64,000 nt of DNA from an uncultured Spirochaetota bacterium (lineage in GTDB: Bacteria; Spirochaetota; Spirochaetia; JAFGXN01): contig CALXOJ010000001.1 in the NCBI GenBank assembly GCA_944390005.1, positions 144,363 through 208,362 of the forward strand, given 5' to 3'. The translations under genes and the position numbers were made by a program. Positions within the stretch are counted from its first letter, which is position 1, and every line of letters starts with the position of its first letter. This document shows positions 3,506 to 52,886 of the stretch, in pieces. The notes under the pieces are model-generated. The model ran no database searches. It worked only from the letters and a program-made list of their open reading frames with translations, and was not told the origin of the DNA.

Positions 3506-6500
3506 AACCGTGGAATTTCGCCATTAAACATCCCGTCATTATCGGGATCATGTTGTTGACGATAGTGATGTTCGGCGGAATTTCTCTGACAACACTCAAG
3601 CAGGATTTGATTACCAATATATCGCTGCCGCAGATTGCCGTCTTTACGATTTATCCCGGCGCCGGACCGGAAGACGTCGAACAGGGCGTTACCGATATTC
3701 TTGAAGAGCGTTTCGCCGGTATTCAAGGCGTTGACAGCATTGAATCGTTTTCTCAAAATTCACTCTCGATGATTATTTTGATTTTCAATTCGGAAGCGGA
3801 CTTGGAACAAAAAATCAACGAGGTGCGGGCGGAAATCAACGCGTCAATGGTTTCGCTTCCTGATAACATCAGCGGAATGCCGATGGCGCTGGTTATGAGC
3901 TCCAACTTGTATCCGATCTTTTCTGCTCAGGTTGAGAGCACAATGAATCGGACTGTATTGACCGATTATATTCAGACAAAGGTTGTGCCGCTGCTCAGCC
4001 GTATCGAGGGTATTGCAACGGTCGATTTAGTCGGTTTGGCGGAACGGCAATTAGATATCGTTATTGATTTGGAAAAACTCGAATCGAGAAACATTTCCAT
4101 TCTCGATATTTATCAACTTTTGATGTACAATAATCTGACCTTTCCTGCGGGAAGCGTCAGTTACCGAGATAAGAAACTCAATGTCCGAACGGTCGGCAAC
4201 TTCAAAACCGTCAGCGACATCGGCGAAATGGTTGTCGGATACAAAGAGGATGAACGCAGTTTCGTTCTGTTGAAGGATATTGCTGTTATTAAAATTGTTG
4301 AAAAGAAACCGGATCACTACGCCGAATTCGGCGGGCAGTCGATTCTCGTTCTTGACATCCGAAAGAAATCCGACGGCGATTCGCTGGCGATTATCGATCA
4401 GGCGAAGGAGGTCTTCCGCCAGGTTTCACTGGATACCAACGGCGCTGTTGCGTTTACGCCGGTTATCGACAGTTCGTTTGATGTCAAGTTGGCGGTCAAT
4501 TCGGTGCGCGATTCGGCCGTACAAGGCGCCATTTTGGCGATTTTGGTTATTTTTCTTTTTCTCCACAATGTTCGGACGACTTTCATCATCGGATCGGCCA
4601 TTCCGCTCTCTGTTGTTATTTCTTTCATTTTTATGCGTTTCGGAAATCTCGACATCAACATCATTACGTTGGGCGGATTGACCGTCGCTATCGGTATGAT
4701 GGTCGACTCTGCCATCGTTATTTTGGAGAATACATACAACCACTTTGAGAAGACCGGCGACCGGAAAACCGCTTCTTCTGTCGGAGCGGGGGAGGTCGGC
4801 GGTGCTATTTTGGCTTCGACAACGACAACGCTGGCGGTTTTTGTTCCGATTCTCTTTTTGACCGGATTGGTTGGAGCCATTTTGAAAGACATCAGTCTGA
4901 CAATTTGTTTCGCAATTACCGCATCCGCCTTTGTTGCCGTCATTATTGTCCCATGGATGTGCTCACTGATGCTGAAACAGCCGCAGCCCGAAAAAGCGGG
5001 ACGAATCGGCCGTATTTATCAGATTGCGTCGAATAAAATCGATTTTGTCATTGATAAAGTCAGAGACGGTTACATTGCGGCGCTGCGGTGGGTGATCGGC
5101 AATAAAAAGTTTTTTGCGCTGCTGATGGTTCTGATTTTGATTCTCAGCGTGCTGCTCTTTTTGCTGCTCGGATTTACTTTCATTCCGTCGACCGATATGA
5201 ATGAATTCCAGATTGAAGTGACCGCGCCTTCCGGTTTTTCTCTGGAGCAGACGCGTGAAAAAATGAGAGAAATCGAAGCGATTGTCAACGAATTGGTTCC
5301 CGAGTTGGATTCGGGGTATTACTATACCGGTTTGTCGGGAGCGTACGACGTCGTTTACGTACCGAAGAAAGGCTTTGCTAAATTGCGTCTGATCCGCAAA
5401 TCGGAGCGTCCCGAAGTCGACGGGCGTGTGCGCAACGTTCAGGATGTCATTTTGCTGCTGCAGGAGGAAATTCCGGCGCGGGTGACCGACGTCAACGTTG
5501 TTGTTTCCAACGGCGGTATCGATAAAATGCTTTCGTATGCGACCGGCGGCGCCGGATTGGTGATCGAAGTTTTCGGCGAGGATTTCGACGACGTTTTACA
5601 GTCGGCGACCACCGTTTCCGAAATACTCAGCAAGGATCCCGGAATTTATAAAACCGGTATGAACGTTGTCACCACCGAGTATGAAGTCATCAACGAACTG
5701 ACGCTGCGGTATTTGAATTACCTCGGCATCACTCCGTTTGAAGCCGGCGTAACCTCTCGTATCATTTTCAACGGAATGGAAGTCGGACAGTTCAATGAGG
5801 ATGGCAAAAATTACACCATCAATTTGGTTTCCAATGTTGCCGGAGAGAGAATTACCGACGACATTCTCAACAAAATCCGCATCAAGAACCGACAGAACGA
5901 CTTTATCAGCTTTGAAAATATTTCGCAGATGCAAATCGAAAAGACAGTCGATCAAATTCCTCACATTGACCGAATGAAATCGATTGTGGTGACCGGTTAT
6001 CAGCGGGATCCCGACATCAAAGCCATCGGAGACCGGTTTACGGCGAAAATGAATGAAATTGTCTTACCGGGTGATGTACAGTGGAAAATCGGCGGTTCGT
6101 CTGAGTTGCTGACTTCATCCCTCGACAGTCTGGTGAAGGTGCTGCTGATTGCAATTTACCTCGTTTATGTTGTCATGGTGGTTCAGTTTGAGCGTTTCAT
6201 TCAGCCGTTCATCATTTTGGGCTCGATTCCGTTTGTCGTCATCGGTGTGGCGCTGACGCTGTTTTTGACGAATACACAAATTTCCCTCGTTTCGATGCTG
6301 GGAATCATTGCGTTGGCGGGAACGGTCGTCAATAACGCTATCGTTTTAGTCGATTTTACCAATTTATTGAGACGCGATTATAATATGGAATTGATGGACG
6401 CCGTCTACAAAGGCGCCGCGTCCCGTTTTAAGCCCATTATGATGACCACACTGACAACTATTTTGGGCGTTATTCCGATGGCGTTTGGAGGCGGCGAGGG

Positions 6501-6666
6501 CGCTGAAATTTACGCTCCGCTGGGTCTGACTATCGGCAGCGGTTTGATTACTTCTACTGCGGTTACCTTGTTTATCATTCCGATGCTTTATGCGACAGTC
6601 GAAAAGCGCATGGAAAATCGGAAACAAAAGAAAAAAATTGCAATTTCAGGGGAGGCTTCGAAATGA
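3502..6666 (+). CDS. RND family efflux transporter permease (AcrB/HAE1-like), 12 TM
   Basis: 1054 aa with characteristic length and TM/porter-domain layout. ATGA overlap with the upstream adaptor. Confidence 0.95.
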   Translation: MKPWNFAIKHPVIIGIMLLTIVMFGGISLTTLKQDLITNISLPQIAVFTIYPGAGPEDVEQGVTDILEERFAGIQGVDSIESFSQNSLSMIILIFNSEADLEQKINEVRAEINASMVSLPDNISGMPMALVMSSNLYPIFSAQVESTMNRTVLTDYIQTKVVPLLSRIEGIATVDLVGLAERQLDIVIDLEKLESRNISILDIYQLLMYNNLTFPAGSVSYRDKKLNVRTVGNFKTVSDIGEMVVGYKEDERSFVLLKDIAVIKIVEKKPDHYAEFGGQSILVLDIRKKSDGDSLAIIDQAKEVFRQVSLDTNGAVAFTPVIDSSFDVKLAVNSVRDSAVQGAILAILVIFLFLHNVRTTFIIGSAIPLSVVISFIFMRFGNLDINIITLGGLTVAIGMMVDSAIVILENTYNHFEKTGDRKTASSVGAGEVGGAILASTTTTLAVFVPILFLTGLVGAILKDISLTICFAITASAFVAVIIVPWMCSLMLKQPQPEKAGRIGRIYQIASNKIDFVIDKVRDGYIAALRWVIGNKKFFALLMVLILILSVLLFLLLGFTFIPSTDMNEFQIEVTAPSGFSLEQTREKMREIEAIVNELVPELDSGYYYTGLSGAYDVVYVPKKGFAKLRLIRKSERPEVDGRVRNVQDVILLLQEEIPARVTDVNVVVSNGGIDKMLSYATGGAGLVIEVFGEDFDDVLQSATTVSEILSKDPGIYKTGMNVVTTEYEVINELTLRYLNYLGITPFEAGVTSRIIFNGMEVGQFNEDGKNYTINLVSNVAGERITDDILNKIRIKNRQNDFISFENISQMQIEKTVDQIPHIDRMKSIVVTGYQRDPDIKAIGDRFTAKMNEIVLPGDVQWKIGGSSELLTSSLDSLVKVLLIAIYLVYVVMVVQFERFIQPFIILGSIPFVVIGVALTLFLTNTQISLVSMLGIIALAGTVVNNAIVLVDFTNLLRRDYNMELMDAVYKGAASRFKPIMMTTLTTILGVIPMAFGGGEGAEIYAPLGLTIGSGLITSTAVTLFIIPMLYATVEKRMENRKQKKKIAISGEASK

Positions 6667-8078
6667 AAAGATCGGTTTTATTGCTGTTGTTGGCGGTTTT
6701 TTTGCTGCCGATCGGCTGTGACGGAGTTTATGATACGTCCGTACAGGGCGTTGTAGTGGATTGGGATGATTACAACAGCGCTGCCGTGGAGGATCCCGGA
6801 ATTAACGACGTCGATGTTTATCTCTACCTTGATGAAACACTTTTGGATGAAGATTTGACGGCGTGGGGCAACGATGGAACACTTCCCGACAATCGTCTTA
6901 ATAAGAAAGGCGTCAAAGAGCAGGCCTATTATCAGAAAACCACGACGGCTTCTTCCGGCGGAGAAAACGGCGTGTTCAACTTCAACGGCTTAATGTGGCG
7001 AAATTTCTTCCCCGAATTCGGTAACGACGGAGACCGTGCAACGCTCTATTTTCTCTTCTATCATAAAGATTACGGCATGGTGAAAGCTGATAACCCCGTG
7101 ATTGCCACTTCAGGCGTCACCAACAAGTTGCCGCAGTTTCGAATCAAAAAAGCGCTGTGTGAAGTTATCCTCAGCGGTTATGTCGTCGATATGAATAAAA
7201 AGAAGGAAGGTTCCGGAAGCAAACTGCCGCTGCAGGGGGTGACTGTCGGTATTTATATGCCGATAGAATTCAACAGTTCGACGGGAGCTGCCGAAGCGTG
7301 GGAAACGGAGCCGAAGTACACGGTTCTGACCGATGCTGACGGTCGGTTTGAGCAGAAAATCAATTTTACAAAGCGAAATGAACCTGTCAACCAGAAGTGT
7401 ACGGTCAAACTCACTTTTGATCTGACCGATTATGTCGGTTATACTCTGACATCGGAAGCTGCCAACCAATACAGCGGTCTGAACGGAGATGCCGTCCCCG
7501 AAGTCGAACGTGATTCAGCCAACTGGGTTCTGCTCAACGGATCGGAAAGCGTTTCCCTGTCGTACAAAGGCTTTGACGGAACGGCTACGACAGTCTCGGA
7601 TATTTCCGAGAGCGTCGGCGGCGGAGCCGGTCCCGATTTTACGGAAAAATATGACATCGACAACGACGGTGAAGACGAAGTATGTTTGCCGGTGACGTTG
7701 ACCTGCAATACCGACAACCCCAACGGCAGCAGTTACCGGCTGGGCGAGAGCGTTTATCTGAAGCAGTACCGTTTTTCGACAACCGTTGCGGGAAGCATTT
7801 TGGACAGTACCGGAACAACGCTGAACGGAAGTGTCACACTCTCTTCCGCAGCCGATTATTCGAATTCAGAAACGACCAAGACTCAGTTAATCAGTTCAGG
7901 AGATACGCCTGTCTACGGATATTCAATGAGCTATTCGTGGACGGTTTACAATTACAGTACCGAGTATGCGTATCAGTTGGTTTACATGAAAGCGTCTGCC
8001 GGTTCTTCAAATATTGATAAAGGGGCGACGCTGATTTCCGGCCGTTCGGAAAATGCAGTGGACTTTATAAAACCATAA
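6663..8078 (+). CDS. lipoprotein of unknown function embedded in the RND operon (beta-sandwich CarboxypepD_reg/transthyretin-like repeats suspected)
   Basis: Signal peptide plus lipobox (LLPIGC). Motifs such as GYVVD...LQGVTVGIY...TDADGRF resemble carboxypeptidase-regulatory-like domains. ATGA overlap with the RND pump and 10 nt to the TolC-like gene. GGGGAGG ribosome-binding site. Confidence 0.6.
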   Translation: MKRSVLLLLLAVFLLPIGCDGVYDTSVQGVVVDWDDYNSAAVEDPGINDVDVYLYLDETLLDEDLTAWGNDGTLPDNRLNKKGVKEQAYYQKTTTASSGGENGVFNFNGLMWRNFFPEFGNDGDRATLYFLFYHKDYGMVKADNPVIATSGVTNKLPQFRIKKALCEVILSGYVVDMNKKKEGSGSKLPLQGVTVGIYMPIEFNSSTGAAEAWETEPKYTVLTDADGRFEQKINFTKRNEPVNQKCTVKLTFDLTDYVGYTLTSEAANQYSGLNGDAVPEVERDSANWVLLNGSESVSLSYKGFDGTATTVSDISESVGGGAGPDFTEKYDIDNDGEDEVCLPVTLTCNTDNPNGSSYRLGESVYLKQYRFSTTVAGSILDSTGTTLNGSVTLSSAADYSNSETTKTQLISSGDTPVYGYSMSYSWTVYNYSTEYAYQLVYMKASAGSSNIDKGATLISGRSENAVDFIKP

Positions 8079-8088
8079 GGAGTCGGAC

Positions 8089-9774
8089 GTGGAAATAAAA
8101 ATGAAAGGGAGAACGCTGCCTTTCGCCGTTTTTTTCCTGTTTCTCTCCCTCTTTGCTTTCGGTGAAAAGAAAAGCTACACCGAGGTGATAACCACCGATC
8201 CCCTTGTCGAGAAAGGGCTTTCGGTCTCTGCTGGAAAGAAAATCGGCATTTGGCGTCCTCCGACAGAAAAAAAAGAGCTCCCGACTGACCGAAAAATTAC
8301 ATTGGAAGATTTGATTGAGCATGCGCTGACAAACAATGCTGAATTGGGGCAGATGCGCTCGGAGGTTAATCAGGCTAAAATCGGCGTTATGGGGGCGAAG
8401 GCCAACTATTTCCCCAAAGTCGATTTTCAGGCGTCGATGACATGGTTTTTGAATCCGCTGAAAGAGATCGGTTTGAAACAGGGTGAATTGGGGATCGTCG
8501 AAATTCCCAACGTCGGTTCTGTAATGCTTCCGATGGAGGATTACAGCCTCTATGATGCCCGCGACAATTCGTTTTATCGGTTTGTCTTTACATTGGAGCA
8601 ACCGATCTTCACATGGGGAAAAATTCCTGCCGCCGTCAAACTCTATCGGGAAGCCGCTCGGGCTGCTGAGCTGAAGTGCGCCCGCAAAGAGAGAGAATTG
8701 GAAGCATCCGTCAACGGCTATTACTTTTCGATTTATTATTTGAATCAAATTTCAGCCGCATTGGGCGAACAGATGCAGTATTCGGATCGGCTGCTGCTTT
8801 TAACCCGCTCCAGTTACGAAAACGGATTCATCACCTTGACCGACTTTCAGGACGTTCAAACGAAGGTCAAAGACGTTCAGATTGCCGATTCGCGCGTTAA
8901 AGACAGCTTTAACATGATCCGATACAAATTGATCGCGGCTCTCGGCGGAACGAATATCGATTTGGAAAATATCGATTTTACCGGAGCGGAAGAGCGGCTG
9001 GCGGAGTTTGAAACCGCCGACTGGATGAAAACTCTCGACGAATACGTTTCCCAGGCGAAGGCGGCGAGCGTTGAAATGGATTTATTGCGCGCTCAGGTTG
9101 AAGTTTATGAACAAAAGTATGATATCGCCAAGGCGGACAGCTACTTGAAACCGGCGGTCGGAATGCAGGTTCAGGCAGGATTTTCGGGAACGGCATTTCC
9201 GTTTTTGGAACGCGGCTGGTATACAAGCGGTTCGCCGATTTTAAGCGCTTCGATCGGAATTCAGTCGCGTATTTTGGACGGCGGAGACCGTCTTTCGACG
9301 ATTATGCTCGGCGAACAGGAGCTGCAAAACGCGAAGTATCAGCTTCAGTCCGGGGAATTTACCATCGAATCGACAGTTTCGACTTTGTACTCGAATATCG
9401 AATACAATTACACCAACATTGCGTATTTGAAAGATCAAGAGGCCAATTATCAGCGTTTGGCCGATCGGCAACGGATTCGCTATAACGCCGGGCAACTGCG
9501 GGAAATCGATTATTTGCGCAGTCTGATTGAGTATCAGACCAGTCTGATTTCGACGGCGAACGAACGAATCACATTGGTCGGAAATTATTTTCAGCTGATG
9601 TACTTAATCGATAATGTCGACGGAAAAGACGAGCCGGTTGTAACGGAAGAGGTGATAGCCGATTCGCCGGAGGCAGAGCCCGGAAACGGGACTGCTGCCG
9701 AAAACGCGGGCGAAGCGGCATCTGAAACCGCGCAGACCGCCGCAACCGAAACACCGGCCGCTCAGGCGGAGTAA
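8089..9774 (+). CDS. TolC-family outer membrane efflux channel
   Basis: Signal peptide, two outer-membrane-efflux-protein repeats with coiled-coil heptads, last gene of the operon. C-terminal acidic Ala/Glu/Thr tail. Confidence 0.85.
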   Translation: MEIKMKGRTLPFAVFFLFLSLFAFGEKKSYTEVITTDPLVEKGLSVSAGKKIGIWRPPTEKKELPTDRKITLEDLIEHALTNNAELGQMRSEVNQAKIGVMGAKANYFPKVDFQASMTWFLNPLKEIGLKQGELGIVEIPNVGSVMLPMEDYSLYDARDNSFYRFVFTLEQPIFTWGKIPAAVKLYREAARAAELKCARKERELEASVNGYYFSIYYLNQISAALGEQMQYSDRLLLLTRSSYENGFITLTDFQDVQTKVKDVQIADSRVKDSFNMIRYKLIAALGGTNIDLENIDFTGAEERLAEFETADWMKTLDEYVSQAKAASVEMDLLRAQVEVYEQKYDIAKADSYLKPAVGMQVQAGFSGTAFPFLERGWYTSGSPILSASIGIQSRILDGGDRLSTIMLGEQELQNAKYQLQSGEFTIESTVSTLYSNIEYNYTNIAYLKDQEANYQRLADRQRIRYNAGQLREIDYLRSLIEYQTSLISTANERITLVGNYFQLMYLIDNVDGKDEPVVTEEVIADSPEAEPGNGTAAENAGEAASETAQTAATETPAAQAE

Positions 9775-9817: not shown

Positions 9818-12709
9818 TTACAGCCGGACGGCGCGCAGCGGCTTCCGGATTGCTTCGTTCCGCAGCAGAGACAGCGCCGAAGCGATGTCAAGCGAAAAGT
9901 ACGGTTTGAGATCTTCCCGAATATCGAAAACGACACCGGCTGAGGTCGGAATTCGGCAGGAAACGCCGACGGTCAACGGAAAAACTGCCTGAGCAAACCC
10001 GATTTGAATGTTTAATTCTCCGCCAAGATAGACGTAATTACCGAACGCCGCCGTTTGTTCGATCGTATTAAAATTCGCATAAATTTGCGTAAACAAAGCG
10101 CCCGAAAACGAGTGAAGGGCCAATGTTGCGAACAGCGGCGCGTCAACGATCGCAATCGGAAACTGGTACCCGAACGATGCGCTTAAAGCGGCGGTTGTGT
10201 TTCGATCTTCGTATTCAAAGCCTCGCAGCAGCAATTGATGAGTCTGATTGACTTCCGTTGATGCGGAAAAGCAGATCTCTGAAAAAAACGAGTGCGCGCC
10301 GACAATGGGAATCGTTCCCATTACAGCAAAGACGCCCAGAAAAACCGGCTCTTCGATTTCTCCGATCGGCAACAAAACCGAGGAGTTGAACCCCGCGTAG
10401 ACGTACTGCGCCAGCGACGGATAACCGCGGAATCCGCTGTGCCATGAATATTGAAAATCGATATTTTGATTGGAGTAGAGAAAGTGCTCCGATTCAATGC
10501 CTCCGGCAGCGGCATTTGCCATTCCGAATGCGTGAAACGGTTCAGCCGCCGTCATTGTCCAATAGTGAGTCAATCCGCCGCCGATCTCTGCATGCCACTG
10601 ACGGTTGGCGAGGGATCGGGTAAAAAGCGGAACCGAGACCGACAGCGTTTGTGAGAATTCCTGACGGTATTCGGATCCTGTTTCATCCTCGAACAAATTG
10701 CCGCCGTTGAGCAGCGAATAAGAAAATTTCAGTATCGAAGCCTCAAACGCGGCGTCAAGAAAAACAGAGGGCTGAAAAACCGAATTCCCTTCAGCCTCAA
10801 ACGGAAACGACGTCATAAAAAAAACGGAATCGTTTTTGACAACCGATTGGGCGTACATCAGAAATCCGAAACCGAGCGGATTGGCAAAGCCTCCGACCGG
10901 AGAATAATTGATCGGAAACGGTGTCCATCCGACAAATTGAGCCGAGTCGATGTATCTTTTGACAGTCAACGATACGCCTGGAAGGGAGGCCGGATCGGGA
11001 ACCGTCGGCTCAACCGCTGTCGGTTGGACGGTTACAGTGAGCGCCAGCGTTTCGGGCGCAGCGGCGGTCTCCTCGGCAATTTTTATGACATAGCCGTCAG
11101 ACGCGTAAGACTGGTAGTAAAATCGGCCGCCGTATCGGATACCTGCCAAAACACCGATGCGATCGGAGAGCCGTTTGACGGCTTCACCTCCGTTTTTGGG
11201 ATTCCGTTCGAACAGTTCGAGCGATCCGCTGCCGTCTCCGATAAAAAACAGCGACCCGTTTTGATCAAACTCCGGGTAATAAAGCATTCCGCCGTTTTCC
11301 GCCGTCAAGAATTCGACAGTTTGTGACTCCCGATCGAGCACGGCAACGGATTGGACTCCCGCACGGTTGTACGCAAACGCAATCAGGCGGCTGTCCGGCG
11401 AAACGGTCGGATGAAAGACGTTGACTTCACCGCCGTCGAAGAGCGTTTGAACGGCTCCCGTTTTGAGATCAACCGACACAAGACGCGAATACGGTCCGTC
11501 CGTTTGAACGGCGGCAGCTGTGTTTTCGTCGATGTACGCCGGTTGGAAAAGCCGAGCGTTTTTTGTAATCCGCCGCGTTTTTCCGCTTTCGGCACACCAT
11601 TCAAACAAGTCGGCGACCGAATGAGGATGACCTTCGACGGCGTAGTCAATTTCATAGCCCGAATAAAGAATACGGCTGCCGTCAAAAAGAGCGTCGTAAT
11701 CGTTTGCGTTGGTCAGGGAGGCAAACGCAATCGGCTGTTCGGCTCCCGTATCGGGATCCAAAAAAACGAAGCGGGACGGATTTTCGTTCGAAGCGTTCTG
11801 ATAGGAGAGAATGCCTTGGATAGTCGCTACGGGGCGGCCGTAATCGATGCGGACGCCTTTTGAGAACCGTTCGCCGAGAGGCAGATCATAGAGCGGTTCA
11901 AATCGCTCCGAGTAAAACCGAATCATGTCGCGGTAAAGCGTTTCTGTCGGTTTTCCCGTAACAATTTCAAAAGCCCGATACGGTGCCAGCGGATTCTTTT
12001 CCATTTGCCGGTAGAATCGCGCCATGACATCGTCGCCGTAAGTTTCAAAGAGATAATTGATCATCATATAACCGACGACGTAAATTCTTCCGTAAGGCTG
12101 AATGTACGGATTGTAAGCTGCCTGCTTGAGCGACGGCATGGCGTTTTCCGTTATTTGAGCGCGATAAATCATTTCAAAATAAGGATTTCGCCCCCTTCCG
12201 CCTTTTGAAAAACGGGTTTCGGTGTACGTTGTGATTCCTTCGATGACCCAACCGGGTTGAAAGACGGACGGAGCCGGACGCAAAATCGGACCGAAAAATT
12301 TTGACAGTTCATAAAGCCATCCGCTTTCCGGTGACATAGAGATATAGTGCGTCAGTTCATGGGTAAAAAGCGATCGCAGCCAATTTTCGGTCCGTGCGCC
12401 GAGAAAAAAATCCCGCGGCGATGTGACGTAGAGATTCAGATATTCGGGAACGGGGTAGTAGCTTCCGTTGGCTTGATTGACGTCGCTGTGGATAACGACT
12501 TTGATTTGCCGCGGTCGATTTTCCAGCAATCCGGCCAAATTTTCGTAAACCTCTTCAGAAAACGATGCAATTTCCCGCGCCCACCGTTCGTTGTCTTTCT
12601 CGAAAATAAAAACGAAGTGTTCCGTTTCAATTTGATAACGGGAAACGGACCATGCGGAAAGAGCGGAAGTCAGAAAAATTGCGATTAAAAAGAGACGGAA
12701 GAGCTTCAT
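9818..12709 (-). CDS. large exported protein: N-terminal HExxH (gluzincin-like) domain + TolB-like beta-propeller + C-terminal beta-rich (barrel-like) region
   Basis: 963 aa with a signal peptide. FTHELTHYIS...WVIEGITTY gives HExxH plus a downstream Glu. PDSRLIAFAYNRAGVQSVAVLD-type propeller blades follow. The Gly/aromatic-rich C-terminal 400 aa ends in an aromatic residue. Confidence 0.6.
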   Translation of the reverse strand: MKLFRLFLIAIFLTSALSAWSVSRYQIETEHFVFIFEKDNERWAREIASFSEEVYENLAGLLENRPRQIKVVIHSDVNQANGSYYPVPEYLNLYVTSPRDFFLGARTENWLRSLFTHELTHYISMSPESGWLYELSKFFGPILRPAPSVFQPGWVIEGITTYTETRFSKGGRGRNPYFEMIYRAQITENAMPSLKQAAYNPYIQPYGRIYVVGYMMINYLFETYGDDVMARFYRQMEKNPLAPYRAFEIVTGKPTETLYRDMIRFYSERFEPLYDLPLGERFSKGVRIDYGRPVATIQGILSYQNASNENPSRFVFLDPDTGAEQPIAFASLTNANDYDALFDGSRILYSGYEIDYAVEGHPHSVADLFEWCAESGKTRRITKNARLFQPAYIDENTAAAVQTDGPYSRLVSVDLKTGAVQTLFDGGEVNVFHPTVSPDSRLIAFAYNRAGVQSVAVLDRESQTVEFLTAENGGMLYYPEFDQNGSLFFIGDGSGSLELFERNPKNGGEAVKRLSDRIGVLAGIRYGGRFYYQSYASDGYVIKIAEETAAAPETLALTVTVQPTAVEPTVPDPASLPGVSLTVKRYIDSAQFVGWTPFPINYSPVGGFANPLGFGFLMYAQSVVKNDSVFFMTSFPFEAEGNSVFQPSVFLDAAFEASILKFSYSLLNGGNLFEDETGSEYRQEFSQTLSVSVPLFTRSLANRQWHAEIGGGLTHYWTMTAAEPFHAFGMANAAAGGIESEHFLYSNQNIDFQYSWHSGFRGYPSLAQYVYAGFNSSVLLPIGEIEEPVFLGVFAVMGTIPIVGAHSFFSEICFSASTEVNQTHQLLLRGFEYEDRNTTAALSASFGYQFPIAIVDAPLFATLALHSFSGALFTQIYANFNTIEQTAAFGNYVYLGGELNIQIGFAQAVFPLTVGVSCRIPTSAGVVFDIREDLKPYFSLDIASALSLLRNEAIRKPLRAVRL

Positions 12710-44958: not shown

Positions 44959-46056
44959 ATGCAACTGTTTTTTAAAGGAATCGTTTTATTGGCGGCCATG
45001 ATCTTTGTCTCCTGTCCCGGGAAACCGGCGGCGGTATCGGGCTTGACAATCGACCGCACGGAACTGAATTTGAAGCTGGGGCAGGAACAGACGGTGAATG
45101 CGTCGGTTCTTCCGGGGGAGGCTGGCGAAAAGGGAATCCGCTGGTCGAGCGATGCCCCGCAAACCGTTTCCGTAGCGGGCGGCCGCATTCGCGGGGTTTT
45201 GCCGGGGACGGCGACTGTGACGGCCGAGACCGTTGACGGCGGTTTTCGGCAGCAGTGCCGGGTGACGGTGGCCGATGAGGTTTACATTCCCGATCCGCTT
45301 TTCCGCTCCTATCTGTTTTCGCTTTTCGGCGAAAATTCGGAAACGGGAGAGAAACAGATCGATCTCGATGCGGACGGCATTATCACATTAAAAGAGGCGG
45401 AAACGGTTACGGTGATTCACTGCTACAAACTGTCAAACACACCTTCGGAAGAAAAGATTGCCGATTTGACCGGTCTCGAATATTTTGTCAATCTGGAAGA
45501 ATTGGCGTGTCACTACAATAAAATCGAATCTCTCGATTTGCGGTCGCTTTCGAAACTGCGTCGTCTTTACTGCTTTGATAATCGTTTAAGAGAGCTCGAT
45601 CTTTCCGGAAATCCGCTGCTGACGGAGGTCTCCTGCGGAGGCAATACGCTGAAACAGTTGAGTCTCGAAGCAAACCCGTTTCTTGTTACGGTTGATGCCG
45701 GGGAATGCCGCCTCGAAGAGCTGGATCTGACCGGTTTGCCGGAATTGGAATATCTGGTCTGTTCGCAAAATCGTCTGCGCTCGCTCGATGTTTCCCGTAA
45801 TCCGAAGCTGATTCATTTAAGCTGCTACAATAATTACATGGATCGGCTCGATGCCCGAAATTGTCCGAATCTCGATTTTCTCTGGTGCGGACAGCAGATC
45901 AACGAAGCGGAAGGAATGTACAATTTGAAACTTTCTCTTTATCTGCCCCAATCGTTGTGGGACAGATGGGAGAGTGACGAAACGTGGGGAAAGCCGGGTT
46001 CGGACGGATATCCTGCCGAAACGGCCAACACCTGGGTGACCCTTATTAAAGAATGA
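44959..46056 (+). CDS. surface lipoprotein: Big_2 Ig-like domain + EF-hand-like loop + ~9 leucine-rich repeats + conserved W-rich C-terminus
   Basis: Lipobox FVSC. Big_2 unit (GLTIDRTELNL...CRVTV), DLDADGIITLKEAE loop, and 22-residue LRRs (LxxLxCxxNxLxxLDLSxNPxL). Confidence 0.75.
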   Translation: MQLFFKGIVLLAAMIFVSCPGKPAAVSGLTIDRTELNLKLGQEQTVNASVLPGEAGEKGIRWSSDAPQTVSVAGGRIRGVLPGTATVTAETVDGGFRQQCRVTVADEVYIPDPLFRSYLFSLFGENSETGEKQIDLDADGIITLKEAETVTVIHCYKLSNTPSEEKIADLTGLEYFVNLEELACHYNKIESLDLRSLSKLRRLYCFDNRLRELDLSGNPLLTEVSCGGNTLKQLSLEANPFLVTVDAGECRLEELDLTGLPELEYLVCSQNRLRSLDVSRNPKLIHLSCYNNYMDRLDARNCPNLDFLWCGQQINEAEGMYNLKLSLYLPQSLWDRWESDETWGKPGSDGYPAETANTWVTLIKE

Positions 46057-46087
46057 AAACCATCGAATCGTATTGAGGAGGAGTTTT

Positions 46088-48448
46088 ATGAAAATGTTTG
46101 TTCGCTGTTGGGGAATGGTTTTGCTGCTCGCTTTGGCAAGCTGTGAAAAGGATTCGGCAAAAGTGTCCGGAATAACGGTAACGCCTGCATCGGTGACACT
46201 GGAGGCGGGGAAGACGGTTTCGCTGAAAGCCGCTGTTGTGCCCGAAACGGCAGCCGATAAAACTGTCCGGTGGGAATCGGAAAATCCGGCTGTTGCCGAC
46301 GTCACCGCTTCCGGAGTCGTGACGGCCAAAGCCGCCGGCGAGACGTCCGTGACAGCTGTCACGACCGACGGAAATTACCGGGCTTCCTGTCTGATAACCG
46401 TTATCGGCAAAACGGACGTTACGGGAGTCCGAATCGACGAGACGTTTCCGGTTCCGGTGGGAAAAGAAGTCGGTTTAAATTATGCGGTTCTGCCGACCGA
46501 TGCCTCCGTGAAAACGGTTTTGTTTACGGTCGAAGAGGGGAAAGAAGATGTCCTGACGCTTGAAGATTCCAATCGCGGTATCGTGAAAGGGGTTGCTGTC
46601 GGTGCGGCACAGGTGACGGTGACCACCGCGGAAGGCGGGTACAGCGACAGTTGTGCCGTGACGGTTTACCGGGCAGCGGAAAAGGTGACGATAACGGCCG
46701 ACGGTTACGAGGCTGCCGCCGGGTTGGAGGCCGGGCTGACGCTTGCGCTGACGGCGACCGTTTCCGGAGAGCCGACTTACGGCACCGTTTTCTGGGCAAC
46801 GTCCGACCCGCAAACCGCCGCTGTCGCTGCGGACGGCACGGTCACGGCCAAAGCACCGGGCACCGTTACCGTGCGGGCTTCGCTGCACCCGTTCGACAAC
46901 CCCGATTACCCTGCCGATGTCACGGCGGAGATCAAAATCGACATTGTCGCGGGCAGTGCCGCTGTCGAATCGGTTGCAATTAACGAAGGCGAAACCGTTA
47001 CGATGTTCAAGGGAGAGACAAAGCAGCTGACCTGTACGGTCAATCCCCCGAATGCCTCAGAGAAAACAGTGGTTTGGAGTGTCACAGAGGGGGCCGATGT
47101 CGTTTCCGTCAATGCCGATACGGGAGAAGTGACGGCGCTCCGTCCGGGAAGTGCGACCGTAACGGTTACCTCGCGATCCGATGCTGCCAAATCGGACAGC
47201 TGTACCGTTACGGTTCGGGAGGCTGTCACCGCCGTCCGGTTGGACCGCGACAGTCTGCGGCTGACGCTGACCGAAGACGGCAAAACGGAAACCCTGACCG
47301 CTGCGGTCGAACCGGAAGAAGCGACTGACCGCAGCGTTCGGTGGACAGCCGATCCCGACGGGATTGTCTCTGTTGAGAATGGGACAGTGACCGCACTGAA
47401 CGCCGGAACGGCAACCGTTCGCGCCGAATCGGTTTCCAATCCGGGAGTTTACGATGAATGCGAAGTGACGGTGATTTCTCCCGTCACGCAGATTACGCTG
47501 AATCATTCAGTTTACCCCGCAGCTCCGGGAACATTCGAAGTCGGCCTCGATTTCGTTTTGAGTGCGGCGGTGACGCCCGGCGACGCGACAGACAAACGGC
47601 TGACTTGGAGTGTTTCACCCGAAAACATTGTTTCATTGGATGACGCAACCGGAACCGTAACCGCGTTAGAAGCCGGAACCGCTACCGTTACGGTGACCGC
47701 CGCCGACGGCTTCGGGGCATCGGCCTCGTGTGTTATCACCGTCTCTCCGGCAACGGCAGCCGTCACAAAAATTGTTTTGAATCGGGAGAGTGTGAACCTT
47801 TATAAAGGAAAAAGTTACCGTCTGACAGCATCCGTCGAACCGCCCAACGCCGCTGTTAAAACCGTCACATGGAGTCTCGAAGGAGGCGATGGGGCGGCAA
47901 CGATTTCGGACGACGGTCGTCTGAGTGTCAATTCAAATGCCGGCGCGGCCATGTTTACGGTGAAAGCGACCGCCGGAGACGCTTCCGGAGTGACAGCAAC
48001 CTGCGCGGTCACGGTTCGTACGGAACTGATTCCCGCAGGAGCGCTGTTCGATGCCGTTGCCGCCGCGACCGGCAAACAGAACTTCACGGAATCCGACCTG
48101 GAAAACGTCTCCGAACTGGAGGTTGTCGCGGCATCTGGAACAACAGCTCTGTACGGTCTGGAGCTGATGCCGAATCTGCTCTCGCTTGACTGCAGCGGCG
48201 GATTTTTGACCGATCTGGATACTTCGATGAATCTGGAACTCGAAACGCTGATTTGCAACGGCAATTATTTGGAAAAGCTCGATTTGCGTTCGAATTCGGC
48301 ATTGAAGAATCTGCTCTGCGGAAATCAGATTGGTCAGATTGGATTAAAAAAAGTCCCTCTTTATCTGCCTTCTTCTTTATGGGAGAGGTGGGATAATGAA
48401 TGGAGTCGGAACGGTTCCAATAACAACGTCACTCTTGTCAGAGAATAA
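46088..48448 (+). CDS. surface lipoprotein paralog: seven tandem Big_2 domains + LRRs + conserved C-terminus
   Basis: Lipobox LASC. Seven units of about 85 aa each ending ...C.VTV; C-terminal LYLPSSLWERW motif. GAGGAGG ribosome-binding site. Confidence 0.75.
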   Translation: MKMFVRCWGMVLLLALASCEKDSAKVSGITVTPASVTLEAGKTVSLKAAVVPETAADKTVRWESENPAVADVTASGVVTAKAAGETSVTAVTTDGNYRASCLITVIGKTDVTGVRIDETFPVPVGKEVGLNYAVLPTDASVKTVLFTVEEGKEDVLTLEDSNRGIVKGVAVGAAQVTVTTAEGGYSDSCAVTVYRAAEKVTITADGYEAAAGLEAGLTLALTATVSGEPTYGTVFWATSDPQTAAVAADGTVTAKAPGTVTVRASLHPFDNPDYPADVTAEIKIDIVAGSAAVESVAINEGETVTMFKGETKQLTCTVNPPNASEKTVVWSVTEGADVVSVNADTGEVTALRPGSATVTVTSRSDAAKSDSCTVTVREAVTAVRLDRDSLRLTLTEDGKTETLTAAVEPEEATDRSVRWTADPDGIVSVENGTVTALNAGTATVRAESVSNPGVYDECEVTVISPVTQITLNHSVYPAAPGTFEVGLDFVLSAAVTPGDATDKRLTWSVSPENIVSLDDATGTVTALEAGTATVTVTAADGFGASASCVITVSPATAAVTKIVLNRESVNLYKGKSYRLTASVEPPNAAVKTVTWSLEGGDGAATISDDGRLSVNSNAGAAMFTVKATAGDASGVTATCAVTVRTELIPAGALFDAVAAATGKQNFTESDLENVSELEVVAASGTTALYGLELMPNLLSLDCSGGFLTDLDTSMNLELETLICNGNYLEKLDLRSNSALKNLLCGNQIGQIGLKKVPLYLPSSLWERWDNEWSRNGSNNNVTLVRE

Positions 48449-48467
48449 TATAGGAAAGGAGCGAAAA

Positions 48468-49586
48468 ATGAAAAAGATCTTCAGTTGTATTGCTGCTGTA
48501 TGGATGTTGGCTTCCTGCGATCCGGTAACGGATCCGGTGAAGGCAACCGGTATCGAGATCCGACCTTCGTCGGTGACTTTGGAAATCGGAAAAACGGAAG
48601 AACTGACGTTTGCGGTTTTGCCGGAGCAGGCGGTTCAGAAAGTTCTTTGGGAAAGTTCGAATGAAAAAATCGTTACGGTGAAAGAAGGAAAAGTGACGGC
48701 AATAGCTGCCGGGAAAGCCGAAGTGAAAGCGGTCGTTGCCGAAAATAAAAGTCTGACGGCTGTCTGTACGGTGACCGTTACCGCGCCGGAACCGGAAGAA
48801 AAACCCGTAACGGGACTGACGCCGACTCCGGCAGTCGATCAGCCGGTTTCTCTTACCGTCGGCGGAACGCAGACATTTAGTGTCGCCGTCGTTCCGGAGG
48901 ATGCCTCAAACCCTGCCGTGAACTGGAGCGTCGATAACGAAGCCGTCATCACGCTGAGTGCCTCAACCGGAATGTCCGTAACGGTGACCGCCGCCTCTGC
49001 CGGTACCGCTGTCGTCACCGCCGTCTCGGCCGACAACGGTGAGGTTTCCGTTTCGTGGACGGTGACCGTCACCGAGCCGGTACCGGAGAGCCTGAATCTG
49101 GAGACAGATGTTCCCGATGTGGCATTCCGTGACGTGCTGAAAAAATTTGATACGGACAATGACGGAATCGTGTCCCGGGCGGAAGCGGATGCGGTTACGG
49201 AACTCATTTGTGAAGACTGGAATGATACTATAATCGATTTAACCGGCATTGCTTTCTTCACAAATCTTGAAACACTCTCCGTTCAGGGGGAACGTCTCGA
49301 ATCTGTCGATTTGAGCGGAAATCGGAAATTGAAACACATTGACCTTCGTTATAATGCAATCAGGAAACTTGATTTAACGGCTCTGGATCAGTTGCAGGAA
49401 TATAAAACCAATACCGCAGGGACGGTTGTTTACGGTTTACAGATCGGCCATCAGGGTGAGTCTGACGGAGATGAAATTTCCGTTATTCTTTCAGATGTGT
49501 ATAAGGATGTCTGGGATCGGACATGGAGTCAGCCGATCTCCGAATACAGTACACCGAATAAGGGCGTGATCGCTACCTTTCGTTAA
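48468..49586 (+). CDS. surface lipoprotein paralog: two Big_2 domains + EF-hand/dockerin-like loop + LRRs
   Basis: Lipobox LASC. DTDNDGIVSRAEAD loop. AAAGGAG ribosome-binding site. Confidence 0.75.
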   Translation: MKKIFSCIAAVWMLASCDPVTDPVKATGIEIRPSSVTLEIGKTEELTFAVLPEQAVQKVLWESSNEKIVTVKEGKVTAIAAGKAEVKAVVAENKSLTAVCTVTVTAPEPEEKPVTGLTPTPAVDQPVSLTVGGTQTFSVAVVPEDASNPAVNWSVDNEAVITLSASTGMSVTVTAASAGTAVVTAVSADNGEVSVSWTVTVTEPVPESLNLETDVPDVAFRDVLKKFDTDNDGIVSRAEADAVTELICEDWNDTIIDLTGIAFFTNLETLSVQGERLESVDLSGNRKLKHIDLRYNAIRKLDLTALDQLQEYKTNTAGTVVYGLQIGHQGESDGDEISVILSDVYKDVWDRTWSQPISEYSTPNKGVIATFR

Positions 49587-49596
49587 ATCTTATTGT

Positions 49597-49640
49597 GCGG
49601 GAGAGATGTCTTCTTTGGGAAGAAATCTCTCCGTTTAAAG
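49597..49640 (+). terminator. terminator-like hairpin after the BIG2-LRR array
   Basis: GGAGAGATgTCTTC-tttggg-aAGAAaATCTCTCC followed by a weak U-tract (GTTTAAA). Confidence 0.4.
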
Positions 49641-49662
49641 GCAAAACAATCGGGCGGAGGGG

Positions 49663-51129
49663 GTGATGAACATCCGGAAAACGATTTTTTTGGCGATTGC
49701 CGCGGTGATGCTGCAGGCGGCTGTCGGTTGCGAAGAAAAAAAGAGTGAAGCGGGACGGCTTTATACGCTGACGGCCGCCGTTCCGCAAGAAGAGGGGAAC
49801 TTTATCGACAGCGATCACCGTTTTACGCTGACGGCCGCCCTTGCTCCCGGCCGCGAGGCGGCGGCCGGCGCACAGCCGCGGCCGTCGACGGCGCTGCCGG
49901 TCCGGTCGGCGTCGGAAAATCGGGAAACCGCAGCGGTTCACTCGTTTTATTCCCGGATGAGGGAGACCGAAGAGCGGCTGGCGGCCGCATCGGCATCGGG
50001 CCGAGCGGCGGGCGCATCCCGGTTTCGGATTGCGGACGGCAGATCCGGAGTCCGTTCCGTTACGGAAGGCAGCAGCCGCTACGGGTTTCGGGTTCTCGAC
50101 GGCAACGGAGTGTCCCACTCGGTTGATGCCGTTTGCCGCCGGGTTTCCCGGTACGCTGCCGTTTATGTCGATACCGCGGTGACGGTCGACAGCGCCGCGC
50201 TGGAGGTCGTTACCGCGGAATTCGATCGGATGGTGCCGGAAATGCATCGGCTTTTTTCTCATGAAAGCGATATCGACGGGAACGGTACCGTTCTTTTTCT
50301 GCTGACCCCGCTGGAACCGGGACTCTACGGTTATTTTTACGCTCAGGATAAATATCCCGACGGAACCGGCGGCGAGTTTTCGAACGAAGCCGATCTTCTT
50401 TATGTGAATTCCGACTGTTTTGCCGATTTCGAAACACATCGGGACGATTTGATTGCCACGTTTATTCATGAATTTCAGCATATGATTTTGTTCGATCACC
50501 GAACCCGGCTCGGGAAACCGCAGCTGCCGGTCTGGCTGAACGAGGGACTCTCCATGCTCTCCGAATATTACGCCGGATATGCGCTGCCGCACGGTCGTTA
50601 TCTGGAAGCGTTATTTGAGAATCAGGGCATTTCTCTGATCGAGAATCACCCTTTCCCGTTGCCCAATTACGGTTATTCTCTTCTCTTTCTCCGGTATCTT
50701 CGGGAGCGGTGGGGAGACAATGTTGTCCGCCGCATTTATGATTCCTCATTTTCGGGAGTGGCGGTCGTTTCCGATGCAACCGGCGTCGAATTTAATACGC
50801 TTTTTTCCGATTTTACAACCATGATTGCCGTCACCGGACGGGGTATCGAACAGGATGAACGTTACGAGATAGCCGCTTTCGGTCATGAACCGGGCAGTGA
50901 GGCGTATCGGAAAAACGGATTCCACTTGGCGCGGCTGATTGATGATCTGTATCGCCGGAAACGGGGTTCCGGCTGGCCTTTATCGGTCGATTTGACGAAA
51001 AAATCCGGAATTCGGGAAGAAAATATGTTGTCTTACTCGTTTTATCTTCACGAGTGGCTTAACGGAACGGTTTCTTCGTTCGGATTCGAATCGGACGGAA
51101 CGGTGCTGTTTCGCGAAGTCCGCTATTAA
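49663..51129 (+). CDS. lipoprotein zinc metallopeptidase (HExxH + downstream Glu; gluzincin-like, possibly M30/hyicolysin-like)
   Basis: Lipobox AVGC. Disordered Ala/Arg/Ser-rich linker, then FIHEFQHMILFDH...WLNEGLS. Confidence 0.6.
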   Translation: MMNIRKTIFLAIAAVMLQAAVGCEEKKSEAGRLYTLTAAVPQEEGNFIDSDHRFTLTAALAPGREAAAGAQPRPSTALPVRSASENRETAAVHSFYSRMRETEERLAAASASGRAAGASRFRIADGRSGVRSVTEGSSRYGFRVLDGNGVSHSVDAVCRRVSRYAAVYVDTAVTVDSAALEVVTAEFDRMVPEMHRLFSHESDIDGNGTVLFLLTPLEPGLYGYFYAQDKYPDGTGGEFSNEADLLYVNSDCFADFETHRDDLIATFIHEFQHMILFDHRTRLGKPQLPVWLNEGLSMLSEYYAGYALPHGRYLEALFENQGISLIENHPFPLPNYGYSLLFLRYLRERWGDNVVRRIYDSSFSGVAVVSDATGVEFNTLFSDFTTMIAVTGRGIEQDERYEIAAFGHEPGSEAYRKNGFHLARLIDDLYRRKRGSGWPLSVDLTKKSGIREENMLSYSFYLHEWLNGTVSSFGFESDGTVLFREVRY

Positions 51130-51188: not shown

Positions 51189-51217
51189 TTGAAAAAAGCG
51201 TTCATTTCGGCTATAAT
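51189..51217 (+). promoter_or_regulatory. sigma70-like promoter for the ABC-F gene
   Basis: TTGAAA-N17-TATAAT, then AAGGAG 6 nt before the ATG at 51246. Confidence 0.55.
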
Positions 51218-51245: not shown

Positions 51246-52886
51246 ATGCTGACTGTCACCGATTTATCGCTTTCTTTCGGACAACGGGTTCTGTTTAAAG
51301 ATGTCAATCTGAAATTCACACCGGGCAACTGTTACGGCGTTATCGGTGCTAACGGCGCCGGGAAATCGACATTTTTGAAAATTCTTTCCGGAGAAATTGA
51401 GGCCGATAAAGGAGAGATTTTTATCACTCCCGGGGAGCGGATGGCGGTTTTAAAACAGGATCACTTTGCTTACGATAAAGAAACGGTTCTCGATACGGTG
51501 ATTATGGGCTACGAACGGTTGTTCTCCGTAATGAAGGAAAAAGACGCCATCTACATGAAGGAAGATTTTTCCGACGAAGACGGATTGCGCGCCGCCGATT
51601 TAGAAACAGAATTTGCTGAAATGGGCGGTTGGGAAGCGGAAAGCAACGCCGCGGTTCTTCTTTCAGGTTTGGGAATTCCTGAATCGCTCCATGACAAAAA
51701 AATGGCCGAATTGGAAGGCGGGCAGAAGGTGCGCGTTCTTTTAGCGCAGGCGCTCTTCGGAAATCCCGATATTCTGCTGCTGGACGAACCGACAAACCAC
51801 CTCGACCTCGAATCGATTGCGTGGTTGGAGGATTTTCTGCTTCATTTTGACAACACCGTTATTGTGGTCTCTCACGACCGGCACTTTCTCAATACGGTCT
51901 GTACCCATATCGTCGATATCGATTTCGGGAAAATGAAACTTTTTGTCGGTAATTACGATTTTTGGTACGAATGCAGCCGCATCATTCAAAAGCAAATGAA
52001 GGATTTAAAGCGCAAAAATGACGAAAAAATCGCGGAACTGAAGCAATTTATTCAACGATTTTCGTCAAACGCAGCTAAATCCAAACAGGCGACCAGCCGT
52101 AAAAAGCTGATCGAAAAGCTGACAGTCGAAGATTTGCAGGCTTCGTCGCGAAAGTTTCCATACGTTCACTTTAAAGCCGACCGCGAATGCGGAAAAGAAA
52201 TTTTGAAAGCCGAAAAACTCACGAAGATCGTCGACGGAGAAAAGCTGCTTGATAACTTTTCTTTGACAGTCAATAACGGCGACAAAATTGCTTTCATCGG
52301 AACCAATCACGCTGCTAAAACCGAATTTTTTAAAATTATCACCGGCGAGCAGAAGCCTGATTCCGGTTCTTACACTTGGGGCGTGACTATCAAAACGGCC
52401 TATTTCCCCAAAGACAACAGTGCTTATTTCGACAGCGATTTATCAATTACCGATTGGCTGCGGCAGTATTCTCCTGAAAATCAGGATGACGTTTATATCC
52501 GCAGCTTCCTCGGGCGAATGCTTTTTTCGGGAGAAGAGTCGTTGAAAAAAGTGCGTGTGCTCAGCGGAGGCGAGAAGGTGCGCTGTATGCTTGCCAAAAT
52601 GATGCTTTCGGGAGCCAACGCTCTGATCTTCGACGAACCGACCAACCACCTTGACTTAGAATCGATCACGGCTCTCAACAACGCCCTCAAAGATTTCTCC
52701 GGCGTCATTCTCTTCAACTCCCACGACCACCAGTTTGTCAATACCGTTGCCAACCGCATTATCGAGCTGACGCCGACCGGCGTCATCGACCGCATGACGA
52801 CGCTCGACGACTACCTTGCCGATGACGCTGTTCGTGAACTGCGTGATAAAATGTACCGAAACTGCCACAACGCTCTCTCAATTTAA
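51246..52886 (+). CDS. ABC-F family ATPase (two ABC domains, no TMD; translation factor-like)
   Basis: Two Walker A/signature/Walker B sets (GANGAGKST...LSGGQKVRV...LLLDEPTNHLD; second set LSGGEKVRC...IFDEPTNHLD) plus the inter-domain linker. Confidence 0.9.
   Translation: MLTVTDLSLSFGQRVLFKDVNLKFTPGNCYGVIGANGAGKSTFLKILSGEIEADKGEIFITPGERMAVLKQDHFAYDKETVLDTVIMGYERLFSVMKEKDAIYMKEDFSDEDGLRAADLETEFAEMGGWEAESNAAVLLSGLGIPESLHDKKMAELEGGQKVRVLLAQALFGNPDILLLDEPTNHLDLESIAWLEDFLLHFDNTVIVVSHDRHFLNTVCTHIVDIDFGKMKLFVGNYDFWYECSRIIQKQMKDLKRKNDEKIAELKQFIQRFSSNAAKSKQATSRKKLIEKLTVEDLQASSRKFPYVHFKADRECGKEILKAEKLTKIVDGEKLLDNFSLTVNNGDKIAFIGTNHAAKTEFFKIITGEQKPDSGSYTWGVTIKTAYFPKDNSAYFDSDLSITDWLRQYSPENQDDVYIRSFLGRMLFSGEESLKKVRVLSGGEKVRCMLAKMMLSGANALIFDEPTNHLDLESITALNNALKDFSGVILFNSHDHQFVNTVANRIIELTPTGVIDRMTTLDDYLADDAVRELRDKMYRNCHNALSI

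Follow-up and report, generated by a model that had tools for sequence, protein, structure and literature searches.

A probable lipid-anchored zinc metalloendopeptidase of the M30 (hyicolysin/lugdulysin) family in an uncultured Spirochaetota bacterium

The gene at positions 49663 to 51129 (forward strand) of a 64,000-nucleotide stretch of DNA from an uncultured Spirochaetota bacterium (hereafter, the window) very probably encodes the precursor, about 487 amino acids (aa) long, of a zinc metalloendopeptidase that is anchored by lipid and belongs to the M30 (hyicolysin/lugdulysin) family of MEROPS subclan MA(E). A lipoprotein left unannotated by the current Pfam and NCBIfam cut-offs can thus be placed in a family with confidence, and the placement reaches roughly 6400 clusters of relatives. 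Members of M30 now seem to occur also in Spirochaetota, Deferribacterota (Mucispirillum), and Gemmatimonadota, where most of them are lipoproteins, and for microbiome research, gut spirochaetes and Mucispirillum gain a candidate protease that may be surface-bound or secreted. No concept changes, since chemistry, fold, and family were already known. The original prediction, made from the letters of the sequence, had read this gene and that of a 963-aa propeller protein on the reverse strand (9818-12709) as divergent members of one gluzincin family, possibly M30/hyicolysin-like. The motifs, the lipobox, the direct repeat, and the antisense open reading frame (ORF) that it described were all recovered, its claim of a common motif spacing was not, and its interpretation proved half right: the M30 label holds for the lipoprotein, the single family does not.

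Family assignment and catalytic residues of the lipoprotein

The 488-aa lipoprotein has 1083 homologs at E ≤ 1e-3 in a database search, and an exhaustive profile search retrieved 6431 cluster representatives at E ≤ 1e-3, of which 3453 reach E ≤ 1e-10 and 203 reach E ≤ 1e-30. The family alignment used throughout comprises 29 relatives, which are 31–46% identical to it, save one near-identical strain. The profile of this family matched a sole protein of solved structure, lugdulysin, the neutral metalloprotease of Staphylococcus lugdunensis (PDB 7BB8; E = 7.1e-30, chain residues 30–326), and the window protein taken alone matched the same chain (phmmer E = 5.5e-11, query residues 154–356). Both matches bear out the M30/hyicolysin-like label that had been proposed tentatively, and we conclude that the lipoprotein is a bona fide but divergent M30-type gluzincin. 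M30 falls within subclan MA(E), as does hyicolysin, a neutral endopeptidase that depends on metal (PMC3268031, PMC3890501); the literature treats lugdulysin as a homolog of the Shp protease of S. hyicus (PMC9224237). A literature search on the lugdulysin structure or on M30 returned passing mentions only.

The features of the gene and its product are listed below, with residues numbered from the GTG codon at 49663, the first of the 488-codon ORF.

49663..51129, forward strand: coding sequence of the M30-like lipoprotein metallopeptidase, a 488-codon ORF from GTG 49663 with the stop codon TAA at 51127-51129
49663..49731, forward strand: signal peptide and lipobox (MNIRKTIFLAIAAVMLQAAVG-C23), read directly in the sequence; C23 is the predicted lipidation site
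49732..50070, forward strand: N-terminal region, residues 24-136, with a tether, a beta-hairpin (33-39/52-60), a low-confidence stretch (64-88), a helix (87-111), and a second low-confidence stretch (115-128)
50071..51126, forward strand: peptidase unit and C-terminal beta domain, residues 137-488, with an N-terminal beta subdomain, the active-site helices, a helical subdomain, and strands 441-487
50467..50481, forward strand: HEFQH, residues 269-273; H269 and H273 are predicted zinc ligands and E270 the predicted general base; invariant in the 29 relatives and aligned to HEYQH of lugdulysin
50533..50553, forward strand: WLNEGLS, residues 291-297; E294 is the predicted third zinc ligand (HExxH-x20-E); invariant and aligned to WLNEALS of lugdulysin
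50668..50670, forward strand: Tyr336, predicted to stabilize the transition state; invariant and aligned to the lugdulysin Tyr replaced by Phe in 7BB9

HExxH occurs once in the lipoprotein, as HEFQH, and is followed by E294, which together form the zinc site expected of a gluzincin. The columns that are invariant among the 29 relatives include H269, E270, H273, D278, W291, N293, E294, G295, L296, S297, and Y336. The second deposited lugdulysin chain, 7BB9, is an E242Q Y315F mutant, which shows which residues its depositors regarded as catalytic; the two mutated positions align to E270 and Y336, and the offset of 27 residues between the chain and precursor numberings of lugdulysin is consistent. 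The predicted fold of the lipoprotein also superposes almost completely on lugdulysin, clearly closer than on other MA(E) families. From gluzincin chemistry, H269, H273, and E294 would bind one Zn2+, E270 would act as the general base by polarizing the zinc-bound water, and Y336 would stabilize the oxyanion of the tetrahedral intermediate, while the substrate would line up beside the edge strand 245–249 as one more strand. Substrate binding along an edge strand is seen in thermolysin-, M1-, and M9-like gluzincins. The likely role of such an enzyme would be the breakdown of extracellular or periplasmic proteins or peptides.

Beside these catalytic elements, a loop of the sequence SDIDGNGTV (residues 202–210, positions 50266–50292) is nearly invariant in the family and has a counterpart, SDVDNNGKV, in lugdulysin. 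This DxDxNG loop resembles the calcium type and may form a structural Ca2+ site.

The resemblance to lugdulysin covers the zinc-site motifs, the catalytic Tyr, and the fold, but overall identity is only about 20%, and the Glu spacing is x22 in lugdulysin against x20 in the lipoprotein. Lugdulysin is secreted and has a Gram-positive host, whereas the window protein, belonging to a diderm spirochaete of the Spirochaetales, is predicted to be Cys-lipidated; its N-terminal region is also longer (113 residues), compositionally odd, and includes a hairpin conserved only within its own subfamily.

Could the protein instead be a generic Peptidase_MA_2 member or an M1-like aminopeptidase, and not an M30 endopeptidase? 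We regard this as very unlikely. The Pfam model PF13485 Peptidase_MA_2 matches 27 of the 29 family members at E ≤ 0.01 (best, 1.3e-6), and the precomputed annotation of many relatives includes this family, while the window protein reaches 17 bits (E = 0.0055) and stays under the gathering cut-off of 32.4 bits. M1 aminopeptidases have a GxMEN exopeptidase motif upstream of HExxH-x18-E. A motif check for GxMEN, G.MEN, or MEN found none of them in either the lipoprotein or the 963-aa protein, and because GxMEN is lacking, endopeptidase rather than aminopeptidase action is expected. M1 aminopeptidases and M9 collagenases, which matter chiefly for the 963-aa protein, also have another domain architecture, and their matches to the lipoprotein come clearly second to M30. 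Its best NCBIfam match is NF045524, the MXAN_6640 family of putative metalloproteases (E = 4.4e-9, residues 170–409, 237 of 290 model positions), which lugdulysin too matches weakly; at 36.5 bits, the score is far under the cut-off of 140, so that MXAN_6640 is a related family of which the lipoprotein is not a member. More generally, the Pfam and NCBIfam scans of the lipoprotein and the 963-aa protein yielded sub-threshold matches only. As a side observation, two Mucispirillum-type relatives (P0008 and P0036) weakly match NCBIfam NF033876, flagellinolysin (22–31 bits against a cut-off of 205), which hints that the protease domain of proteolytic flagellins may be a distant relative of the M30-like group.

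Several points nonetheless weigh against reading the gene as that of an active, surface-exposed M30 lipoprotein. At E ≤ 1, the window protein is not matched by PF10460, the Peptidase_M30 model of Pfam, which matches only 2 of the 29 relatives (best E = 0.0039). The likeness to hyicolysin, which is the M30 type peptidase (ShpII of Staphylococcus hyicus), is indirect, being established by transitivity via lugdulysin. The evidence from the fold is that of a predicted model of the lipoprotein, and the activity of every subfamily member is likewise predicted. Position −3 of the lipobox is Ala in the window protein where Leu is canonical. The neighborhood of the gene is not conserved around four more distant homologs (L002, L004, L006, and L012), the synteny with Big_2/leucine-rich repeat (LRR) genes being found only in the near-identical L001, a contig of an uncultured Spirochaetales metagenome-assembled genome (MAG). 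Finally, we infer the surface localization, the substrate, and the pro-segment role of residues 24–136 alike.

With regard to the first of these points, a lugdulysin fragment read from the alignment output and used as a positive control scored 22.3 bits against Peptidase_M30, under the cut-off of 25.8. Because lugdulysin itself falls below the cut-off, the curated model appears too narrow to decide membership, and we dropped it as a discriminator. As for activity, the protein could be a catalytically inactive, protease-derived binding lipoprotein, a pseudoenzyme, and its position next to adhesin-like Big_2/LRR genes would suit such a function. This is most unlikely, however, since H269, E270, H273, E294, and Y336 are all invariant across the 29 relatives, which are only 31–46% identical overall, a pattern typical of active enzymes.

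Comparison with the 963-residue propeller protein

The second protein carries its gluzincin domain at the N terminus:

11840..12709, reverse strand: N-terminal gluzincin domain, residues 1-290 of the 963-aa protein (coding sequence 9818-12709); HELTH at 12347-12361, WVIEGITT at 12227-12250, Y210 at 12080-12082

The two strings on which the kinship had been proposed, FIHEFQHMILFDH...WLNEGLS in the lipoprotein (WLNEG, residues 291–295) and FTHELTHYIS...WVIEGITT in the 963-aa protein (HELTH, 117–121; WVIEG, 154–158; WVIEGITT, 154–161), are both present, and a six-frame scan for HExxH-x(10-45)-WxxEG found these two ORFs alone in the window, where family hidden Markov models (HMMs) and the motif regular expression revealed no further paralogs. 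The spacing claimed to be the same is not: the Trp follows HExxH after 17 residues (the Glu after 20) in the lipoprotein, but after 32 (the Glu after 35) in the 963-aa protein. The extra 15 residues between the zinc helices of the latter correspond to helices 131–139 and 146–149 in a second model (pLDDT 86.7). The proposed [IL]-[ST] tail of the signature is invariant only in the lipoprotein family and varies in the other (EGIT, EGPS, EGIA, EGYT).

Profile–profile comparison of the two catalytic regions gave significant results: with hhalign, the lipoprotein family alignment (A1) matched A2, an alignment from the 963-aa side, at 87.8% (E = 3.3e-6), and A3, the alignment of the N-terminal domain of the 963-aa protein, at 90.6% (E = 1.3e-6), over 161–162 columns each. 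The aligned span (residues 207–386 vs. 66–264) begins with the strand that precedes the active-site helix, ends with the TG...F helix, and pairs Y336 with Y210, which is invariant on the 963-aa side; the similarity thus extends beyond the motif and takes in the catalytic Tyr, so that the outcome named with the original prediction as refuting it, an alignment confined to the motif, did not occur. With single sequences, in contrast, the signal is weak or absent: BLASTP gives 27% identity over 142 residues with a nonsignificant E-value of 0.023, the HMM built from A1 leaves the 963-aa ORF undetected at E ≤ 10, and that built from A3 reaches the lipoprotein only at E = 0.0058. The N-terminal-domain profile of the 963-aa protein does not retrieve lugdulysin at E ≤ 10.

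On these data, it is unlikely that the lipoprotein and the propeller protein are divergent members of one M30 family deployed in two architectures. Such a reading can draw on the shared motifs and on the profile–profile alignment, but the Glu spacing (x20 vs. x35) and the sequence-level searches speak against it. Moreover, 6 of the 30 aligned members of the 963-aa family match Pfam Peptidase_M9 at E ≤ 0.01 and none matches M30; one member scanned individually scores above the curated cut-off of PF01752 Peptidase_M9. As judged from these comparisons, the two proteins are homologous at the superfamily level, that of subclan MA(E) and Peptidase_MA_2, and not as one family. The 963-aa protein has a separate, only distantly homologous gluzincin domain with a helical insert of about 15 residues between its zinc-binding helices. 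The shared WxxEG is a general Glu-helix signature, which M1 enzymes carry too.

Three further observations concern the 963-aa protein. Its C-terminal portion of about 370 residues (9818–11050), which lies beyond the gluzincin domain and a PD40/TolB-like propeller, has no Pfam match. Its family is spirochaete-specific, some members being annotated as collagenase or TolB. An ORF of 561 aa at 8089–9774 (forward strand) adjoins its gene.

Lipobox, N-terminal region, and start site of the lipoprotein

GTG 49663 directly precedes ATG 49666, and a GGAGG sits 5–6 nt 5′ of this ATG. Given the placement of GGAGG and the fact that the two nearest database relatives (P0001 and P0002) start with MNIRK, ATG 49666 is the likelier start, which would give a product of 487 aa.

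The N-terminus reads MNIRK-TIFLAIAAVMLQAAVG-C23, and the box ends in ...AAVG-C23. The protein has the signal peptide and the lipobox with its invariant Cys by which bacterial lipoproteins are recognized, and lipidation is predicted on that basis. The lipobox Cys is retained in at least 90% of the 29 aligned relatives, whose lipoboxes are mostly canonical (L-[LS]-[SG]-C, for example L-L-S-C or L-S-G-C); LPAM_1 was matched in three relatives in the family scan. The AlphaFold model places a helix at residues 4–20. Cys23 should be acylated and the protein held at a membrane. Processing by Lgt and LspA would come first, followed by anchoring of the enzyme through its 113-residue N-terminal region. 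Its gene stands at the end of a row of three genes for Big_2/LRR surface proteins, which suggests that the enzyme may work at the cell surface.

Two further features fall within or next to this region:

49761-49782 and 49821-49842, forward strand: 22-nt direct repeat, two copies 60 nt apart, 91% identical, with a 16-nt exact core
49980..50090, forward strand: hypervariable GC-rich segment, about residues 107-143, nearly unalignable and with indels versus the L001 ortholog (about 6318-6410 of L001)

The region after the lipobox had been described as a long disordered Ala/Arg/Ser linker. The composition is as stated (23% Ala, 15% Arg, and 13% Ser in residues 59–136), but the disorder is not: in the AlphaFold model, residues 33–60 form a hairpin with pLDDT of about 80, residues 87–111 form a helix, and pLDDT falls below 50 only at residues 19–30, 64–88, and 115–128. 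The two low-confidence stretches that flank the conserved elements are rich in GC, and one of them varies strongly from strain to strain. T35 and L36, in the hairpin, are nearly invariant in the lipoprotein family.

The TLTAA direct repeat noticed earlier is a real DNA duplication, its exact core exceeding the longest repeat in any of 2 × 500 shuffled sequences (maxima, 15 and 14). YTLTAAV and FTLTAAL, encoded by one copy each, form the two strands of the hairpin, and the TLTAA within them, at residues 35 and 55, is specified by an identical 15-nt string. In relatives, the hairpin strands differ from the TLTAA pair (TLIYQA and YSISAN), and the L001 ortholog has one exact copy of the core only, which points to a recent local duplication or conversion of DNA as the origin of the TLTAA identity. 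We considered TLTAA as the marker of a repeat domain and ruled this out, as the copies are two strands of a single hairpin and these strands differ in relatives.

The window protein and its L001 ortholog are 89% identical overall and 95% identical in the peptidase unit, and the flanks of the hypervariable segment are nearly identical; the changes within 49980–50090 indicate that this segment is either hardly constrained or diversifying. Together with the 16-nt duplication and the narrowness of the curated M30 model, we count this segment among the minor curiosities of the system.

Residue 154 of the window protein aligns to residue 93 of the lugdulysin chain, which begins just after its signal peptide, so that residues 24–136 correspond in position to about residues 1–92 of that chain and occupy the place of an M30 pro-segment; over chain residues 30–92, the alignment has low posterior probabilities. 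The pro-peptide of hyicolysin is about 75 residues long. If residues 24–136 were removed on activation, the enzyme would be freed from its lipid anchor, which is speculation. A more elaborate version of this idea, in which the 113 residues are both tether and pro-segment, their autocatalytic removal activates and releases the protease, the hypervariable segment is an exposed cleavage hinge targeted by immunity or proteases, and the subfamily is a tool for the gut-mucus niche, strikes us as doubtful. The last element is suggested by the sharing of the subfamily between host-associated spirochaetes and Mucispirillum, with several paralogs per Mucispirillum genome.

Antisense frame, gene neighborhood, and distribution

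The remaining features of the locus are the following:

49573..50592, reverse strand: 339-aa ORF with 15% Arg, a codon-register artifact and not a gene
44959-46056, 46073-48448, and 48396-49586, forward strand: three upstream genes of Big_2/LRR surface type, recognized with Pfam; the peptidase gene is the last in this row of four

The 339-aa ORF had been put down as an artifact of GC-rich coding. That it is an artifact is confirmed, and the proposed cause holds locally (G+C content of 70% in codons 51–150), but not for the gene as a whole (55%, against 48.7% in the window). The ORF lies exactly codon-opposite to the sense frame, so that its stops can arise only from sense TTA, CTA, and TCA codons, of which the peptidase gene contains three, the earliest being codon 317. 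A real overlapping gene would account for the length of the ORF and for the fact that a 296-aa version is open in L001, and at the background TTA/CTA/TCA frequency of 1.3%, a run of 310 codons devoid of them has a P of about 0.02. With thousands of genes per genome, however, such a P predicts many cases; the openness of the antisense frame follows from the codon usage of a strongly conserved sense gene, the frame partly covers the hypervariable, indel-bearing segment, and a Pfam scan assigned no family to its translation. Similar ORFs also overlie several unrelated genes in the GC-richer L002. We therefore hold an overlapping gene to be extremely unlikely. On L002, which belongs to a GC-richer spirochaete MAG, the antisense ORF over the homolog, itself 39% identical to the lipoprotein, is 457 aa long (6115–7488, reverse strand), and like ones lie over its neighbors.

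The order of the four genes is the same in L001. At more distant homolog loci, the neighbors are acetate kinase, a GH20 enzyme, a beta-helix glycosidase, and housekeeping genes, and because gene order is not conserved beyond L001, we inferred no function from an operon. A scan for promoters and terminators gave no convincing promoter before the peptidase gene, and terminator-like matches inside the coding sequence were treated as chance. In the 76-nt gap between the last Big_2 gene and the peptidase gene, positions 49600–49632 hold an AT-rich, 14-nt inverted repeat (93% complementary, 5-nt loop) with no T-tract. No tRNA, tmRNA, or Rfam family was found in the 64-kb window at the gathering threshold. 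Downstream of the peptidase gene, an ABC-F gene is preceded by a strong promoter-like sequence, TTGAAA-17-TATAAT (11 of 12 positions), at 51189–51217. The mechanical TTG start of the ABC-F ORF (51189) coincides with this site, and translation probably begins at the ATG at 51246, which follows AAGGAG.

As regards the distribution of the lipoprotein, the L001 contig carries a second paralog (L006), flanked by a beta-helix glycosidase-like gene on one side and by a GH20 hexosaminidase gene on the other. The next closest relatives, 41–46% identical, come from MAGs of Mucispirillum and other Deferribacterota, often with at least two copies per genome; the paralog pairs of the Mucispirillum MAGs are L003/L008, L005/L009, and L007/L022. 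More distant relatives, at about 30% identity, are found in Gemmatimonadales.

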